From Candidatus Micrarchaeia archaeon (GTDB lineage: Archaea; Micrarchaeota; Micrarchaeia; Anstonellales; Anstonellaceae): 64,000 nt of DNA. Location: positions 100,531-164,530 of the forward strand of contig JBAZLL010000001.1 of NCBI GenBank assembly GCA_041650255.1. The letters are read 5' to 3'. The notes under the pieces were generated by a model. That model was not told the origin of the DNA. It worked only from the letters and a program-made list of their open reading frames with translations, and searched no databases. Shown here one piece after another: positions 3,560 through 46,705 of this stretch (positions within the stretch are counted from its first letter, which is position 1; the number at the start of each line of letters is the position of its first letter). The position numbers and the translations under genes are program-made.

Positions 3560-3610
3560 GGAGTTTGTATTCTGCCTCAGCTATTTAATGCTTGCCGCGC
3601 AAATTTTTGC

Positions 3611-4384
3611 ATGGAAGCCGAGCTTGATACAGCCAAAAACGCAAGGCAAAACCTCAATGCCATTTACTCGAGCCTAAAAGAGCTAAAGGCAAAAAGGGAG
3701 AGAATAAGTAAAGCAATACTTCAGACGCAGGAGCAGGCAAAAAAACAATTCGCAACAAAAAATCCTTCATCCGAGATTTCAAAATCAAAAATCAAAAAAG
3801 AAAAATTCTTTTGGTGGAGCCAGTATCGCTCGTTTGAGACTTCCGGCGGTTTGCGTGCAATTGCGGGCAAAAATGCAAAACAAAACGACGAGCTTTACGC
3901 AAAGCATCTTGAAGAGAACGACCTTTTTTTTCATGCAGACATACAGGGTGCGCCCACAACATTGCTAAAGGGCGGAGCAAATGCATCCGAATCCGATTTG
4001 TTTGAAACTGCCCAATGGGCGGCATGTTTTTCCTCTGCATGGAAAGTCGGGGCCGCAACCGTGGATGTATATGCCGTGAAAAAAGAGCAAGTGGCAAAAA
4101 ACGCGGACGGCGGTTATGTCGGCAGGGGCGCATTTGCAATCAGCGGGCAGAGGCAATGGTTTAGGGCAACTCCCCTTCTTCTAAAAATCGGATTTCTAAA
4201 CGGGCAACTTGTGATTTTGCCCTTTTCGCACAAAAAATCTTTGCAAAAGAAGGCAGTTCTTTCTCCCGGCTCTCTTGAGAAAGAGCAGGCGGCAAAAAAA
4301 CTTTCCGCTTATTTAAGCGCGAAAGCAGACGACATACTAGGTCTGATTCCTTCCGGCGGATTCGGAATAAAAATTGAAGGTTGA
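3611..4384 (+). CDS. NFACT/RqcH (Rqc2/NEMF) homologue, C-terminal half: coiled-coil helix plus NFACT-R (DUF814) domain
   Basis: 257 aa. Heptad-rich N-terminus (NLNAIYSSLKELKAKRERISKAILQTQEQAKKQ) followed by WWSQYRSFETSGGLRAIAGKNAKQNDELYAKHLEENDLFFHADIQGAPTTLLK, the DUF814 core pattern. Confidence 0.75.
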   Translation: MEAELDTAKNARQNLNAIYSSLKELKAKRERISKAILQTQEQAKKQFATKNPSSEISKSKIKKEKFFWWSQYRSFETSGGLRAIAGKNAKQNDELYAKHLEENDLFFHADIQGAPTTLLKGGANASESDLFETAQWAACFSSAWKVGAATVDVYAVKKEQVAKNADGGYVGRGAFAISGQRQWFRATPLLLKIGFLNGQLVILPFSHKKSLQKKAVLSPGSLEKEQAAKKLSAYLSAKADDILGLIPSGGFGIKIEG

Positions 4385-4394
4385 TGGTGTTCTT

Positions 4395-4958
4395 ATGCGA
4401 AAATTTGCAATTTCCGACTTCAAGCAAATAATTTTTGGCAATCCAAATTTTTTATATTTGCGAATTGACGAGCGCACATGCGCCACCCGCTATGTCGTTC
4501 TGAATGCGGGAAAGACTTTGCTGATAGATTCCGGAGACGGGGCGGATGCGCTTTCTTTTACTCCCGACATTTGTATTCTCACTCACGGGCATTATGACCA
4601 CGCGCGCGGGGTGCGCCCGGACTGGCCACAAGTGTTTGTGCTGGATTCAGAAGACGAGAATCTACCATTTGTAGAAGTTCCTCACAATGCAAAAAAGATG
4701 AAAGAGGGAAAATTCAAATTCGGCTCTTTAGACTTTGAAATAATAAACACTCCCGGGCACACTCGCGGAAGCATGTGCATCTTTGAGCCAAAAACAGGCA
4801 TACTTTTTTCGGGCGATACAAAATTTGCGGATGGCGGTTATGGGAGAACGGATTTGGGCGGCTCGGATGAGCAGATGTCAAAAAGCCTTAAGGCAATAGA
4901 CAAATTACCCTGGAAAATCCTCTGTCCCGGGCATGGAAATTTTGAGGAAAGAGACTAA
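4395..4958 (+). CDS. metallo-beta-lactamase-fold hydrolase
   Basis: LTHGHYDHARG (HxHxDH motif), NTPGHTRGS and CPGHG. ATG at 4395 preferred over the TTG at 4374, which overlaps the upstream gene. Confidence 0.8.
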   Translation: MRKFAISDFKQIIFGNPNFLYLRIDERTCATRYVVLNAGKTLLIDSGDGADALSFTPDICILTHGHYDHARGVRPDWPQVFVLDSEDENLPFVEVPHNAKKMKEGKFKFGSLDFEIINTPGHTRGSMCIFEPKTGILFSGDTKFADGGYGRTDLGGSDEQMSKSLKAIDKLPWKILCPGHGNFEERD

Positions 4959-8922: not shown

Positions 8923-9098
8923 CGCCGAGGGGGAGATTGCCAACCGCAGTTGGCAAGATTTGGTGCGAAGCACCAAACCCCTGAAGGCGTGAGTAAAACG
9001 AGCGCCGAGGGGGAGATTGCCAACCGCAGTTGGCAAGATTTGGTGCGAAGCACCAAACCCCTGAAGGCGTGAGTAAAACGAGCGCCGAGGGGGAGATT
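8923..9098. repeat. exact 80-bp tandem repeat (2.2 copies) whose unit begins with the last 16 nt of tRNA-Ser
   Basis: cgccgagggggagatt starts at 8923, 9003 and 9083. The intervening 64 nt are identical in both units. Each unit holds two perfect 8-bp hairpins. Confidence 0.9.
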
Positions 9099-9169
9099 TG
9101 AACTCCCGAAGGGATTTCTCCCAAACAGGTTAGCAACCTGCCGCAATAACCAGGCTATGCGACCCCAGC
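9083..9169 (-). tRNA. tRNA-Ser(GCU), type II with long variable arm
   Basis: Hand fold: GCTGGGG/CCTCGGC acceptor (two G-U pairs), D stem GCA/TGC, anticodon stem GCAGG/CCTGT, loop TTGCTAA, variable arm GGGA-GAAA-TCCC, T arm GGGAG-TTCAAAT-CTCCC, discriminator G. Confidence 0.85.
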
Positions 9170-10833: not shown

Positions 10834-10935
10834 AAAAATCTGGCAGGAAAATAAAATGCAAACAAACTAATTGCAAAGCCGAACCAAAAAATAAAAATAG
10901 AAAAATTATTTTTGGCAGGAAATACCAAATTGCCA

Positions 10936-11182
10936 AAACGGCCCGCCCCTGCATCTCAGCCCTTTAAGCTCCACCAGGGTACTACAGAGCACGGGACAGT
11001 TTGCTTAGGGCTGCTCCTTCCGGCCTGACCCGATTCACTTGCTGCATCCATCCCTGCAGGCTTGGCTTCGACGCCAAAAGACTGCGCATAAAACGAACTA
11101 TTCAGACGCATTAGCATATTCGGCCGCACCTAAAGGGGGTTTGCGCTTACAAGAGGCCCCTAGCCTCCCAGCCTATCCTGCC
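10936..11182 (-). ncRNA. signal recognition particle (7S) RNA
   Basis: Minus-strand GGGTCAGGCCGGAAGGAGCAGCCC (helix 8 with GGAA tetraloop and AGCA) and an Alu-like 5' end GGCTAGGGGCCTCTTGTAAGCGCAAACCCCC. Ends in GCCGTTTTGG. TATA box upstream. End coordinates are approximate. Confidence 0.75.
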
Positions 11183-11204
11183 GTTAACTATTGTGCATTT
11201 GTTT

Positions 11205-15107: not shown

Positions 15108-16835
15108 TTATTCAAAATCAGAAAGCCTGTACTGTCCTTTTTTATGTTTTTTGTCTTGGGAAGAATTTTTTGTTTTGTCCGAGCCCTGTTTTTTATCAAC
15201 AGATTCATTTTGTTTTTTATCCTCTGGAGAATTTATTTTTTTATTTTCATCCTGCTTTTTATTTTGGGCCTTTTCATCAGTTTCCTTTTCCTTCAAACTC
15301 TTTTCTTTAGCATGTTTGATTTCTTCATCTTTTAGTTCTCCCGATTCTTTGCCGGTATTTTTATTCGTCCAAACTTTTTGAAATTCCTCCTCTTCGCGCC
15401 CGCTCATTTTCTTTACAATGCGCTTCATCTTCTCTTCCCGTTTTTTTGCAGACCAGAAAAATGCCTGATCGCGCGTGCCTGTTGCAATGAGCCCGAACAT
15501 TCTTCCCAATTTTGCCCTTCCGGCTCTTCCTCTTCTCTGAATGGAGCGTATTTCAGATGGCACCGGTTCGTAAAATACCACATTGTCAACGGATGGAATG
15601 TCAAGTCCTTCCTCTCCAATTGAAGTGGATACCAAAATGTCAAACTCGTTTTTGCGAAAATCTTCAATGGTTTTTGCCTGCTCTTTCTGCGTGAACCCGT
15701 CCTTTTTTCCCATAAATGGCTTTGAGCGCAATCCCTCTTTTTGCATAGCCTCATGGAGCACTTGCACCTGATCGCGGTATTGTGAAAATACAATGAATTT
15801 TTCTCCCGCCGGGCGCTCTTTTATCATTTGCACAAGCCTTGCAATTTTCGGATGCTCCGCGCAACTTTTCAGCTTTTCCTCAATTTCCTTAAAGCGCACA
15901 TCGTTGAGAAGCCTTTGTTGCGCCTTGCTCTCTTCCCTTGCCTTTACTTTTGTGATAAATTTTGTGAGTGCCTCAATCCCCTGCGTTTCCAAAAGCTCAA
16001 GCACGTGAATAAGTGAAAAAAGTGTCGCATGATATGAGAGCGCAGAATATTTGAGCCTTGAATTTGAGCTTAATATCTTCGCCCTCAATTCAGCCATTCC
16101 CTTCTTTGTATTAAAGCGGGTGTAAAAGCCCATTTTCTTCAGCGTTTCAGATTTTTCCAAAATCATTTTTTCAAGGGTTTTTTTAATCTCCATTATTTCC
16201 GGCGTAAGCTTTACTTCAATCCAGGTTATTTCAAGCGGCATTATGTACGGCTTTACATCCTCATCTTCGGCAGTTCTTATCTCCACGTTTTTTATGCATA
16301 GAATTTCGAGCATATCCTCAATTTTTTTCTTTTGCCCGCCCGGAGACGCCGTGAGCCCTAGCACCATTGTGCCTTTTTCTTTTGCGGTCTGTGCAACTTT
16401 TGTATATGCATATTTTCCAACCGCGCGATGCACCTCGTCAAATATCACAAGCGCAAAATCCCATTCAAGCCTTTTTGCCTCCAAGTCGTTTGCGATTGTC
16501 TGCGGGGTGGAAATCAGAATTTTTGGTTTGGTTGCATATACTTGCGGACGTTTGCCCGCGCTGGTAAGTCCGGATACAAATACGATTTTTTCGGGGGGAA
16601 GATTAATCCATTCCCTAATTGTTTTCTCGTGTTGTTCTGCCAACGGTCTTGTCGGTGCAAGAAACAATATATTGCCTTTCTCAAGCATTTTGTCTGCAAC
16701 AATTAGTGCGAGCAATGTTTTTCCCATGCCTGTCGGAAGCACCACAAGCGATGAGCCTTTTTTTAGAACCGACTCTGCGATAGCTGATTGGTAAAGCCTT
16801 GGCGGCGGAGATTTTTCATTAAGATGAGTCGGCAT
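15108..16835 (-). CDS. Hef/FANCM-like superfamily-2 helicase (helicase part only) with K/E-rich tail
   Basis: LYQSAIAESV..VLPTGMGKT..LAPTRPLAEQH..FDEVHRAVGKYAY..GLTASPG..QRRGRAGR. The last ~100 aa are low-complexity K/E/D/Q. No ERCC4 nuclease domain is present. Confidence 0.8.
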   Translation of the reverse strand: MPTHLNEKSPPPRLYQSAIAESVLKKGSSLVVLPTGMGKTLLALIVADKMLEKGNILFLAPTRPLAEQHEKTIREWINLPPEKIVFVSGLTSAGKRPQVYATKPKILISTPQTIANDLEAKRLEWDFALVIFDEVHRAVGKYAYTKVAQTAKEKGTMVLGLTASPGGQKKKIEDMLEILCIKNVEIRTAEDEDVKPYIMPLEITWIEVKLTPEIMEIKKTLEKMILEKSETLKKMGFYTRFNTKKGMAELRAKILSSNSRLKYSALSYHATLFSLIHVLELLETQGIEALTKFITKVKAREESKAQQRLLNDVRFKEIEEKLKSCAEHPKIARLVQMIKERPAGEKFIVFSQYRDQVQVLHEAMQKEGLRSKPFMGKKDGFTQKEQAKTIEDFRKNEFDILVSTSIGEEGLDIPSVDNVVFYEPVPSEIRSIQRRGRAGRAKLGRMFGLIATGTRDQAFFWSAKKREEKMKRIVKKMSGREEEEFQKVWTNKNTGKESGELKDEEIKHAKEKSLKEKETDEKAQNKKQDENKKINSPEDKKQNESVDKKQGSDKTKNSSQDKKHKKGQYRLSDFE

Positions 16836-16871
16836 AGTGTATATATATGCACGAAGTTCCTAATAATTCCT

Positions 16872-17732
16872 ATGCAGCGCACACTTTCTTTATGGGAATA
16901 TTCAATTCTCTTGCAGGAAGGGCAGTCATTGCTCAAAAACAGGCTTTCAAAGGCATACGAAATTTCCCCGAAACTAATCCGTCTGGATTTTGGAAAGCTT
17001 TCCCTAATCATCTCTTTGGGAAAATATTTTTATATGAGTGAAAATCCGCCCGAAGCCCCGCAAATTCCATCTTCGTTTGCAATGTTTATCCGCAAACATC
17101 TTGGTGGGAAGTTCCTTGACTCTTTTGAGCAATATGGCAATGACCGAATTTATGTGCTGGGCTTTTCAAACGGGCAAAAGATTGTGATTGAGCAATATGC
17201 GCATGGAAATATGTTTTTGCTTGATGAGAAAGACATTATAGTCCGCCCCTATTCATTCAAGCCGACTGCTCTGAAAACCTACAATCCGGGCCAAAAATAT
17301 GAGTGGCCATCAAACCCTTCCAGCCCGGATAAAAAATTCTTTATCGGAAAACTTTATTCCGAGGCTATTTCTTCATATTCAAATTCCCAGCTTGAGAAAT
17401 TAATTTTGCATCCGGTTTTTCTTGTATATCCCGATGCCGTTTCCCTTATGCCCCTACCTTCAAAGGAAGGGGAGAAAAAATTTGATTCTTTCAGCTTGGC
17501 GATTGAACATTTTATTTTAAACAGGCCAGCTCCAGCACCAAAGAAAGCGCCGGAGCAGGTTAAATTGGACAAACGACTTGAAGAGCAAGAACGCGCACTC
17601 AAAAAAATAGACGAGCAAATTCCCGAGCTTGAGAAAATTTGCAAATGGCTTGAGAAAAATTTAGAAAATGTGGATGAGCAGATTATTCTTGCCAGAAAAA
17701 GCGGTGAGAAAAAATTGAAAATAAAGGCTTAA
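16872..17732 (+). CDS. NFACT/RqcH (Rqc2/NEMF) homologue, N-terminal half: NFACT-N (FbpA) domain plus first coiled-coil helix
   Basis: SSFAMFIRKHLGGKFLDSFEQYGNDRIYVLGF..YAHGNMFLLDEKDIIV, then LDKRLEEQERALKKIDEQIPELEKICKWLEKNLENVDEQ. The ATG at 16872 lies about 26 nt downstream of tatatata. Confidence 0.75.
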   Translation: MQRTLSLWEYSILLQEGQSLLKNRLSKAYEISPKLIRLDFGKLSLIISLGKYFYMSENPPEAPQIPSSFAMFIRKHLGGKFLDSFEQYGNDRIYVLGFSNGQKIVIEQYAHGNMFLLDEKDIIVRPYSFKPTALKTYNPGQKYEWPSNPSSPDKKFFIGKLYSEAISSYSNSQLEKLILHPVFLVYPDAVSLMPLPSKEGEKKFDSFSLAIEHFILNRPAPAPKKAPEQVKLDKRLEEQERALKKIDEQIPELEKICKWLEKNLENVDEQIILARKSGEKKLKIKA

Positions 17733-18147: not shown

Positions 18148-19956
18148 ATGGATAGAGAAAAATTTGAAACCCCTAGTCGACTTGATGAGCCTTTTGTTCT
18201 TATAAATACACACTCGGACGCGGTAGATTTACTATATATCAATGCTCCTGGCTTGATGGGCGTATTAAAGGAAAGCAATACTTTTGCGGACGCAAGAAAA
18301 AGTGCAAAAGAACACCTGTTGCACACGAAAATTCAGACAAAAAGTGCTTTATTTATCAAAAGGGCAACTGCTTGCAGAAGACGGCTTATTAGAATATTTT
18401 CAGAACGTAATGAAAAAATATGTGAGTTCTCAACTCTTTACGCTTTGTATCTCATCGCAAAAGACAAGTCAAATGCGCAAAAATATCCCATTTCTCTTCT
18501 AAACGAACTGGTACACTTGATGCATGGTCTCTCTTGTGCTTCAATACTTACCCCCCCAGAAAAAATCTATTCAAGCGAGCAAGAAGAGGTTAGTGTACGG
18601 ACAAATGTCCTCGATGAATATTCCCTTCAGATGCAAAACTACCTAAAGAAATATTCATGCGGTCTAGATAAGAAACTCATCATAAAACGCGAGAAAAACA
18701 AAGCGAAGATTTTATCTCATTTCGGGGCGCAAGAAAAGGACTGGGATGACTGGACATGGCATTTGCGAAATATAATAAAAGACAAGGACACATTGCAATC
18801 CCTCGTCACGCTGTGTGAGTCGGAAACTCAAGCCCTTGTTCTGGCAGAGGAGCTTAAGATACCTTTCAACATAACCCCTCATTATCTTAGTTTATTCAAC
18901 TTTGATGGAAAAAGCGAGGAGGACAGAGTTCCGCGTTCTCAGGTGCTACCCACATCGTATGGTTTGCAAGTAATTTCAAAAACCGGGAACATCTCGTCCG
19001 ATTTGGATTTCATGGGTGAGCGGCACACTAGCCCAATCGAGCTCATAACTCGCAGATACCCGCAAATTCTCATAGTCAAGCCGTTTGATGCCTGCCCTCA
19101 GATATGTCAATACTGTCAAAGGAACTGGCAACTAAAGACATATTCAGAGGCAGAACTTCCTATGAAAGAGAAAATGCGCGCGGCAATAGATTGGATAAGT
19201 TCTCATCCGAGCATCAGCGAAGTTCTGATAACTGGTGGAGATCCACTCACACTAAACAACCAAATAATTGACGACATTCTCTCCCAAATATCACAGATAG
19301 ATCATATCCGCAGAATGCGTATCGGAACGAGAACCCTCGTCACTATCCCTCAGCGAATAGATGCTGAATTCATTGAAATTGCAAAAAAATATCATGAATG
19401 GGGCAAGAGGGAGCTTTGTATAATGACTCATTTTGAGCATGCGAGTGAAATAACTCCCGAAGTTTTAAACGCTACAAAAAAAATAAAAAATGCAGGAATG
19501 AACATTTACAATCAACAGGTGTTCACATACTTCAATTCTCGGCGTTTTGAAACCTCTCACCTAAGGAAATGGACGAAATTAATAGGAATTGATCCATATT
19601 ATACTTTCAATACAAAAGGAAAGGAAGAAACAAAGCACTTTCGGGTTCCTATCGCACGGCTAAAGCAGGAAAGATGGGAAGAAGCTCGACTTCTGCCCGG
19701 AGTGGAAAGGACCGACGAGCCAGTTTTCAACATCCCAAAAATAGGGAAATCTCATCTTCGCGCTACTGGGAGTGGGCACGAGCTGGTTGGGTTCAATAAA
19801 GATGGTAATCGCATGTATAGATTTTTCCCATGGGAATATGTGAATGCGGGCGTGCAACCCTATATCTATACTGATGTATCTGTCTATGATTATTTGAAAC
19901 GGCTTGAAAACGAAAATGAGATTTTGCAAGACTACGCGACAATTTGGAATTACTGA
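18148..19956 (+). CDS. KamA-family (lysine 2,3-aminomutase-like) radical SAM protein with ~190-aa N-terminal extension
   Basis: WDDWTWHLRN, ITPHYLSLFN, RRYPQILIVKPFDACPQICQYCQRNW (CxxxCxxC), LITGGDPL, GTRTLVTIPQRI. Confidence 0.75.
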   Translation: MDREKFETPSRLDEPFVLINTHSDAVDLLYINAPGLMGVLKESNTFADARKSAKEHLLHTKIQTKSALFIKRATACRRRLIRIFSERNEKICEFSTLYALYLIAKDKSNAQKYPISLLNELVHLMHGLSCASILTPPEKIYSSEQEEVSVRTNVLDEYSLQMQNYLKKYSCGLDKKLIIKREKNKAKILSHFGAQEKDWDDWTWHLRNIIKDKDTLQSLVTLCESETQALVLAEELKIPFNITPHYLSLFNFDGKSEEDRVPRSQVLPTSYGLQVISKTGNISSDLDFMGERHTSPIELITRRYPQILIVKPFDACPQICQYCQRNWQLKTYSEAELPMKEKMRAAIDWISSHPSISEVLITGGDPLTLNNQIIDDILSQISQIDHIRRMRIGTRTLVTIPQRIDAEFIEIAKKYHEWGKRELCIMTHFEHASEITPEVLNATKKIKNAGMNIYNQQVFTYFNSRRFETSHLRKWTKLIGIDPYYTFNTKGKEETKHFRVPIARLKQERWEEARLLPGVERTDEPVFNIPKIGKSHLRATGSGHELVGFNKDGNRMYRFFPWEYVNAGVQPYIYTDVSVYDYLKRLENENEILQDYATIWNY

Positions 19957-31973: not shown

Positions 31974-32090
31974 CGCCCCAGCCGGGATTTGAACCCGGAT
32001 CGCAAGCTTTCTTCTGAATATCACGCGTCTGTACATAAATGCACAAGCCATTCGGAGGCTCGCGTCCTATCCAGGTTAGACTACCGGGGC
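31974..32090 (-). tRNA. tRNA-Arg(CCG) with ~43-nt intron in the anticodon-loop region
   Basis: GCCCCGG/CTGGGGC acceptor, D arm GTCT-AACCTGGATA-GGAC, anticodon stem CGAGC..GCTTG, loop CTCCGA., T arm CCGGG-TTCAAAT-CCCGG. 50 nt lie between the anticodon stem strands. Confidence 0.8.
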
Positions 32091-44562: not shown

Positions 44563-44744
44563 GTATTGCTCACCTCTATATTTCATCGGTTCATAGCTGA
44601 AGCTAGAAAAATTCAGCGAGATATATTTGTGCACCCATGCTTATAAAGCTTGATTATAGCCTCTGTCAAACCAAAAAACGCCCTGCCCATTAAAAACCGG
44701 AAATAGGTCAACAAAACTTTGAATCACAAACTCAAATATGAAAA

Positions 44745-44954
44745 TGGCCCCTCATAGTCCGCCTTCTGTTTTAATTACTGCATTCGACTAAGCGGCGTTA
44801 AAACGCCTTGCGTGCCTGTACAGCATTCACGGCCGTTTCATCCCTTGCGGGTATCGTTTCTGCTCCGTGGTGCGCACCTTAAGTGCTTGTACTTTTAGCG
44901 GCGCGGGCGGAGCTTCCTCACTCTTTTGCAAGAGCGCAAGCAGTCCGGGGGCCA
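44745..44954 (-). ncRNA. rnpB: RNase P RNA, unusually compact (~210 nt)
   Basis: The minus strand shows these elements. P1 is GGCCCC..GGGGCC. P3 is CTCTT-GCAA-AAGAG. The CR-I-like element is GTGAGGAAGCTCCGCCC. GGGATGAAACGGCC is present. The CR-V-like element is ACAGAAGGCGGACTAT, with P4 pairing TCCGCC/GGCGGA. Confidence 0.75.
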
Positions 44955-44978
44955 TTTGATAAAATTAGGTATTTCGCA

Positions 44979-46567: not shown

Positions 46568-46705
46568 TGCCATGGGGGAGATTTGAACTCCCGGCTTCCA
46601 GATGGCTCAGCCACTGCCATTATTCGTCATTATGCTAATGCATTCTGCACTCATATGGATTTGACCTATGAGTCTGGCACTCTAACCAGGCTGAGTTACC
46701 ATGGC
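46568..46705 (-). tRNA. tRNA(CAU) (elongator Met or Ile2) with 63-nt intron
   Basis: GCCATGG/CCATGGC acceptor, ACTC-AGCCTGGTTA-GAGT, anticodon stem CCAGA..TCTGG with CTCATA, T arm GGGAG-TTCAAAT-CTCCC. The intron contains TATGAGT, complementary to ACTCATA. Confidence 0.8.

Follow-up and report, generated by a model that had tools for sequence, protein, structure and literature searches.

A phylum-wide two-gene RqcH in Micrarchaeota, divided in the hairpin loop of its middle domain

Large ribosomal subunits on which an unfinished protein has become stuck are recognised by RqcH/NEMF, a factor of universal occurrence. We take COG1293 to be the NFACT/Tae2/FbpA family. The closest described counterparts of the locus reported here are the split genes of Nanoarchaeota, where Podar et al. 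(2013; PMC3655853) found a 'predicted RNA-binding protein' divided at the 'same site' in NEQ438-506 and Nst1 176-251, stated that the gene was intact in all other archaea, and assumed that the halves assemble after translation; the supplement to that paper assigns Nst1_176 and Nst1_251 to arCOG01695/COG1293. For the single-chain protein of B. subtilis, the structure of RqcH on the 50S ribosomal subunit (bioRxiv 10.1101/2020.09.03.281279) shows two contacts only, namely NFACT-R at the A-site finger and the distal part of the coiled-coil hairpin (CC-M) at uL11/H44; NFACT-N and the HhH domain touch only the tRNA and are dispensable for 50S binding. The same work assigns the binding of the tRNA anticodon stem to the DR and EIM loops, and finds the DWH motif necessary for 50S binding. 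Here we describe an RqcH that is encoded by two separate genes in a 64,000-nucleotide stretch of DNA from a Candidatus Micrarchaeia archaeon (assembly GCA_041650255.1, contig JBAZLL010000001.1; the whole stretch is called the window below). The split published for Nanoarchaeota under an older name is thereby extended to a second phylum, and the structural placement of the cut and a lineage-specific erosion of the N-terminal half are added to it.

Two genes for the halves of an archaeal RqcH

Family models and structural comparison confirm that the open reading frames (ORFs) at 16872-17732 and 3611-4384, referred to here as the N-half and the C-half (Table 1), are two intact halves of archaeal RqcH, the homologue of NEMF and Rqc2. 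The N-half is matched by the Pfam family NFACT_N (PF05833, E 6e-21) and the C-half by NFACT-R_1 (PF05670, E 1.4e-25). When aligned to the archaeal RqcH model of NCBIfam (RqcH_arch, NF041120; 645 positions, with a full-length cut-off of 400 bits), the N-half matches positions 9-159 and 240-338 (85.3 + 25.6 bits) and the C-half positions 380-644 (E 1.3e-68, 231.6 bits), each ORF scoring below the full-length cut-off. A preliminary description of the window had taken the first ORF for an NFACT-N half ending in a heptad-rich helix, and the second, on the same strand, for the matching NFACT-R part; both assignments stand, all peptides that were quoted from the first ORF are present in its translation, and the terminal helix is recovered in the predicted structure with the hydrophobic stripe described below.

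Each chain was folded singly with AlphaFold2 (AF2), giving a mean predicted local distance difference test (pLDDT) score of 90.3 for the N-half and 93.1 for the C-half. In the N-half model the NFACT-N domain is followed by two short helices, a small beta/alpha unit and a long helix; in the C-half model a long helix is joined by a flexible linker to NFACT-R, behind which lies a C-terminal domain (residue ranges in Table 1). The latter corresponds to the NFACT-C domain of archaeal and eukaryotic members of the family and gives a weak match to NEMF 999-1035. The NFACT-N domain of the N-half aligns with NEMF 12-196 and with B. subtilis RqcH 64-166, and its long helix aligns weakly with NEMF 294-366. 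Foldseek searches of the PDB are in agreement: the top 13 matches to the N-half are N-terminal structures of RqcH, Rqc2, NEMF or FbpA, and the top matches to the C-half are NEMF, the C-terminal part of FBPS, Rqc2, RqcH and CCDC25.

The two-gene RqcH is real, ancient and under selection. Among 21 N-halves, eight residues show no variation (E16, P66, R74, K75, Q87, D91, G112 and N113) and three are nearly invariant (R92, E107 and F109); D91-R92 and E107..G112-N113 are the counterparts of the B. subtilis RqcH loops DR and EIM. Among 57 C-halves from Micrarchaeota, 17 columns are invariant and a further 35 nearly invariant. The C-half segment D104-L-F106-F-H108, in which D104 and H108 are invariant, aligns with the DWH motif of B. 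subtilis RqcH (D482-I-W484-L-H486). The closest orthologues are only about 50% identical. In one genome of the same genus (G002, N-half L031) the DR motif reads N-D-A and not N-D-R, the arginine having been lost.

A one-piece RqcH is absent from the source genome (a draft of 1.05 Mb in 22 contigs, 89% complete), in which the matches of the two ORFs are the only ones to NF041120. Whole genomes of relatives were searched with the same model, and the full-length cut-off was reached by none of 41 relatives from the same genus, family and order, by none of 121 class genomes from 34 families and by none of 151 phylum genomes that are at least 85% complete and represent 85 genera; the four control archaea (M. 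jannaschii, H. volcanii, S. acidocaldarius and M. acetivorans) all exceeded it. In the relatives, the N-terminal part runs from about model position 1-9 to about 350-385, and the C-terminal part from about 372-381 to 644. The parts therefore abut on the model without a gap, indicating that the cut removed nothing. They lie on different contigs, or 12-520 kb apart on one contig, and at the 80 closest further C-half loci no NFACT-N was found within 2.5 kb of the C-half (0/80). Both halves are kept in nearly every genome, with two or more NF041120 matches in 116 of the 121 class genomes, and the best 120 homologues returned by a protein search with the C-half are all from Micrarchaeota. The fission predates the sampled diversity of Micrarchaeota, has been kept since, and is a trait of the whole phylum.

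The draft state and incompleteness of the source assembly, together with the loss of HhH and middle-domain segments from its N-half, might suggest a broken gene in decay, with the two ORFs as its fragments, or else an artefact of assembly. However, the same arrangement is found with intact frames in 151 of 151 phylum-mates from independent assemblies, which excludes both an assembly artefact and recent decay; in addition, the functional residues are invariant, the deletions are in frame, and the AF2 models reach pLDDT values of 90-93. We accordingly give hardly any weight to this explanation. The preliminary description had suggested a survey of related genomes for the same split, and had allowed for a full-length NFACT gene elsewhere that would leave the two ORFs as decaying remains; the survey returned two separate parts throughout the phylum, and both ORFs are intact with their motifs kept.

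Table 1. Features of the two rqcH genes and of the DNA around and between them (positions in the window)
Feature	Position	Strand	Description
rqcH N-half gene	16872..17732	+	286 amino acids: NFACT-N, HhH remnant, beta/alpha linker, coiled-coil helix 1, short terminal strand KLKIKA
NFACT-N domain, residues 1-127	16872..17252	+	carries the D91-R92 and E107..G112-N113 motifs
HhH remnant, residues 160-179	17349..17408	+	two short helices; from N-half alignment, NF041120 gap and AF2
Coiled-coil helix 1, residues 227-276	17550..17699	+	AF2 helices 227-262 and 264-276; heptad stripe
rqcH C-half gene	3611..4384	+	257 amino acids: first middle-hairpin strand, coiled-coil helix 2, NFACT-R, NFACT-C-like domain
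Coiled-coil helix 2, residues 11-48	3641..3754	+	AF2 helix 11-48; heptad stripe
NFACT-R domain, residues 68-180	3812..4150	+	carries D104-L-F106-F-H108
C-terminal NFACT-C-like domain, residues 182-255	4154..4375	+	NF041120 match to 644/645; AF2 strands and helices, pLDDT about 98
TATA-like box TATTTAAT	3582..3589	+	about 25 nucleotides before the C-half ATG; read directly from the sequence
TATA-like box TATATATA	16840..16847	+	about 28 nucleotides before the N-half ATG; read directly from the sequence
Glyoxalase-II-like MBL-fold hydrolase gene	4395..4958	+	Pfam Lactamase_B 4.8e-16; GloB-type matches weak, below cut-off
tRNA-Ser	9083-9169	-	between the halves
Archaeal SRP RNA	10913-11183	-	94.1 bits, E 1.5e-20; Rfam gathering score 96.5

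Site of the cut and a two-chain model

The division falls at the far tip of the coiled coil, in the loop of the middle (M) domain hairpin, and leaves one strand of the coiled coil in each half. In alignments of a C-half profile to PDB sequences, residue 3 of the C-half corresponds to B. subtilis RqcH 361, S. suis FBPS 74, yeast Rqc2 505 and human NEMF 461-462, i.e. to the conserved strand and 'xNAxxY[YF]' helix start just past the M domain. The CC-M hairpin is consequently not contained within one polypeptide, helix 1 being in the N-half and helix 2 in the C-half, and in the AF2 models neither long helix has a partner inside its own chain. Both helices carry a hydrophobic stripe: 86% of the a/d heptad positions are hydrophobic in helix 1 (17% elsewhere), and 73% in helix 2 (26% elsewhere).

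We consider it probable, at roughly three chances in four, that the two ORFs encode subunits of one working RqcH, a heterodimer re-formed through the coiled coil. In this model, of which the physical pairing, the separate transcription and any tailing activity are putative elements and the ribosome contacts are drawn by analogy from B. subtilis RqcH, an ancient fission, older than the divergence of the sampled Micrarchaeota and placed in the loop of the small middle hairpin, would have left the N-half and the C-half to be made from separate promoters. The halves would most likely re-associate by antiparallel pairing of the two amphipathic helices, and a small contact at the tip might be added by the closing strand of the N-half, KLKIKA, and the opening strand of the C-half, EAELD. 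The C-half would then act as the docking subunit on the obstructed large subunit, with its NFACT-R domain at the A-site finger and, together with the paired tip, a contact to the uL11 stalk base, at which the chain ends would meet. The coiled coil would be the sole attachment of the N-half, which would itself bind the tRNA at the anticodon stem. Such a division into a tRNA-binding chain and a ribosome-anchoring chain fits the published RqcH-50S structure, where NFACT-N and HhH contact the tRNA alone.

The TATA-like boxes ahead of the two start codons (Table 1) suggest that each half has its own promoter and a leaderless mRNA. A mechanism in which the two products are joined after transcription or translation, by RNA trans-splicing or by a split intein, would have precedents among DPANN archaea, i.e. 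the tRNA halves of Nanoarchaeum, which are trans-spliced, and its DNA polymerase, which is assembled through a split intein. However, a stop codon closes the N-half and the C-half opens with an ATG of its own, preceded by a TATA-like box, neither ORF contains an intein or Hint domain, the complementarity between the 3' flank of the N-half and the 5' flank of the C-half (7 nucleotides) is at the level of shuffled sequence, and no C/D-box or other RNA is seen at either border. Joining of this kind thus appears very improbable.

The N-half differs between lineages in its domain content. Most Micrarchaeota N-halves are 350-375 amino acids long and contain an HhH domain, followed by a short helix and strand that represent their share of the M domain. 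In the N-half of the source genome about 45 HhH residues are gone, in frame, by comparison with same-genus orthologues in an alignment of N-halves. The two HhH motifs that are a feature of the family are not found in it, as positions 160-239 of NF041120 are unmatched and AF2 places only the short helices at 160-179 there; model positions 339-379, the N-half share of the middle domain, are also missing. The HhH domain is wholly lost in one sister genus of the family, and is kept in most other Micrarchaeota families. In three genera (g1, to which the source genome belongs, g3 and g7) the N-half lacks the M-domain helix and ends in a short strand. These short N-half tails occur with a C-half head of the form 'NL..Y..L' (10/10), and the other, mostly long, tails with 'NA[AS].Y[YF]' (11/11), a co-variation that is weakly suggestive of a contact between the chain ends. 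In one genome of the same order (G032, L130:2630-5077, minus strand) the N-half runs without a stop into a TPR extension of about 490 residues, giving an ORF of 816 amino acids (NFACT_N at 12-307, TPR at about 540-790) in which the fusion point coincides exactly with the free end that the fission created.

Several observations weigh against a two-chain RqcH. The two genes are unlinked, with no visible co-regulation, and no paper on archaeal RqcH turned up within the library of papers searched. The HhH domain has been lost in several lineages and is mostly gone from the source N-half, and the N-half evolves faster, its mean identity to the source genome being 36% as against 48% for the C-half; the C-half identity is the higher of the two in 19 of 20 genomes. 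This fast evolution, combined with the loss of HhH, could reflect relaxed constraint or a changed role. The fusion to a TPR domain in an order-mate genus indicates that the N-half can take other partners, and the co-variation of tails and heads probably reflects a single clade, and so about one evolutionary event.

In the main rival reading the halves would have become independent after the fission, the C-half as a solo 50S-docking NFACT-R factor resembling CCDC25/Jlp2, perhaps acting with the hydrolase encoded behind it (see below), and the N-half as a free binder of tRNA or other RNA. Consistent with such independence, Foldseek pairs the C-half with the solo NFACT-R protein CCDC25, the C-half is better conserved than the N-half, the N-half sheds domains lineage by lineage and has acquired the TPR fusion in G032, and the halves are never adjacent. 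Nevertheless, nearly all genomes keep both halves, and each half retains a long amphipathic helix that has no partner in its own chain; furthermore, the NFACT-N of B. subtilis has no ribosome contact of its own, so that a free N-half would lack a route to the 50S subunit. We therefore regard independent halves as unlikely, and retain the two-subunit RqcH as the preferred interpretation.

Genomic surroundings

The halves are 12.5 kb apart, both on the plus strand, with the C-half upstream of the N-half. The preliminary description had counted twelve unrelated genes and two RNA genes between them; the RNA genes are confirmed as tRNA-Ser and the archaeal signal recognition particle (SRP) RNA, but only about nine protein genes are confident. 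These encode a hydrolase of the metallo-beta-lactamase (MBL) fold, an unknown protein of 160 amino acids, PadR, an unknown protein of 374 amino acids, an ABC-2 membrane protein, an unknown protein of 518 amino acids, FtsZ, a P-type ATPase and a Hef-type helicase. The SRP RNA falls just under the gathering score and is missed in a default scan.

The MBL hydrolase gene starts 10 nucleotides past the stop codon of the C-half, or overlaps the C-half if its start is the TTG at 4374, and is probably co-transcribed with it. Its place close behind the C-half in 34 of 80 Micrarchaeota loci would be in keeping with a C-half that works independently of the N-half, with the hydrolase as its partner. Those loci belong mostly to closer relatives, however, and a gene further downstream, probably a cysteine-desulfurase-like aminotransferase as judged from its sequence, often travels with the hydrolase gene; in other clades a purL-looking gene, likewise read from sequence, follows the C-half instead. 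The adjacency reads as clade-level synteny and not as a sign of shared function. The hydrolase was accordingly rejected as a functional partner of the C-half, given that its adjacency is limited to nearer relatives and moves with the further downstream gene.

Beside the N-half lie a divergent gene for the Hef-type helicase and a convergent histone gene. Both are common only to the nearest genera, and as this amounts to plain synteny, they too were rejected as conserved partners. The helicase ORF (15108-16835, minus strand; 575 amino acids), which is divergent from the N-half at a distance of 36 nucleotides, matches the Hef nuclease model (781 positions) at positions 17-575 and has no nuclease part; it may be another split or truncated gene. 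The archaeal NFACT neighbourhood published in the NFACT domain paper, with a Mut7-C RNase and AMMECR1, was not seen beside either half, and the PIN protein at 1250-1657 belongs to PIN_9 and not to Mut7-C.

Elsewhere in the window, a protein of 602 amino acids resembling the KamA-family radical S-adenosylmethionine aminomutases (18148-19956, plus strand) bears an unassigned N-terminal extension of about 185 residues. Two Rfam tRNA matches on the minus strand, at 46568-46705 (138 nucleotides) and 31974-32090 (117 nucleotides), are not called by ARAGORN and probably contain introns. The archaeal RNase P RNA (44743-44956, minus strand) is compact, with 214 nucleotides spanning model positions 1-288.

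Meaning and comparison with known systems

The maintenance of a two-chain RqcH throughout the phylum indicates that the protein can do without a covalent link at the coiled-coil tip, and the cut marks a point where the tRNA-binding module can be parted from the ribosome-docking one, which could guide split-protein work on single-chain RqcH in tractable organisms. The fission may have freed the tRNA-reading N-half to become an exchangeable subunit, as is suggested by the loss of HhH here, by a DR motif that has lost its arginine in one genome of the same genus and by the TPR fusion in another genus; if so, some lineages might run quality control with an altered choice of tRNA, or without tailing. 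A further proposal, which we put forward tentatively and consider doubtful, is that a single very old fission in the middle hairpin is shared by several DPANN phyla, Micrarchaeota and Nanoarchaeota among them, with the N-half evolving as an exchangeable subunit. Were it true, the fission would be a rare genomic change bearing on the common ancestry of those lineages. The findings add a phylum-wide case to the split informational genes of small-genome archaea and correct the published statement that the gene is intact outside Nanoarchaeota. They do not amount to a new principle, as a split of the family was known in Nanoarchaeota and public annotation already calls the pieces NFACT proteins ('NFACT RNA binding domain-containing protein' or 'RQC complex YloA/Tae2 family protein'). 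A literature search found no paper on a split RqcH in Micrarchaeota, and the NFACT domain paper is silent on a split.

As in Nanoarchaeum equitans (NEQ438 + NEQ506) and Nst1, the N- and C-terminal parts of a COG1293 protein are here encoded by two separate genes; the host phylum differs, being Micrarchaeota in the present case, and the Nanoarchaeota papers neither link the split gene to ribosome quality control nor place the cut in a structure. The C-half resembles the eukaryotic CCDC25/Jlp2 proteins (Foldseek E 4e-6 to 2e-5) in having a coiled-coil segment followed by NFACT-R, with no NFACT-N in the chain. Unlike them, it contains an NFACT-C-like domain and matches RqcH/NEMF with much higher scores, and the source genome and nearly all phylum-mates also carry an N-half gene, which is not the arrangement of a solo NFACT-R protein.

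Compared with the single-chain archaeal RqcH represented by NF041120, the domain order and the C-terminal domain are the same, and in the relatives the paired ORFs together span positions 1-9 to 644 of the model; the differences are that there are two chains and that the source N-half leaves two stretches of the model uncovered, 160-239 for HhH and 339-379 for its part of the middle domain. Similar to B. subtilis RqcH, NEMF and Rqc2, both folds are matched, the DR, E..GN and D.x.H motifs are kept, and the architecture combines a coiled-coil hairpin and a small middle domain. In contrast to those proteins, the covalent link at the tip of the hairpin, which in B. subtilis belongs to the part that contacts uL11/H44, is gone, and the HhH domain is eroded.

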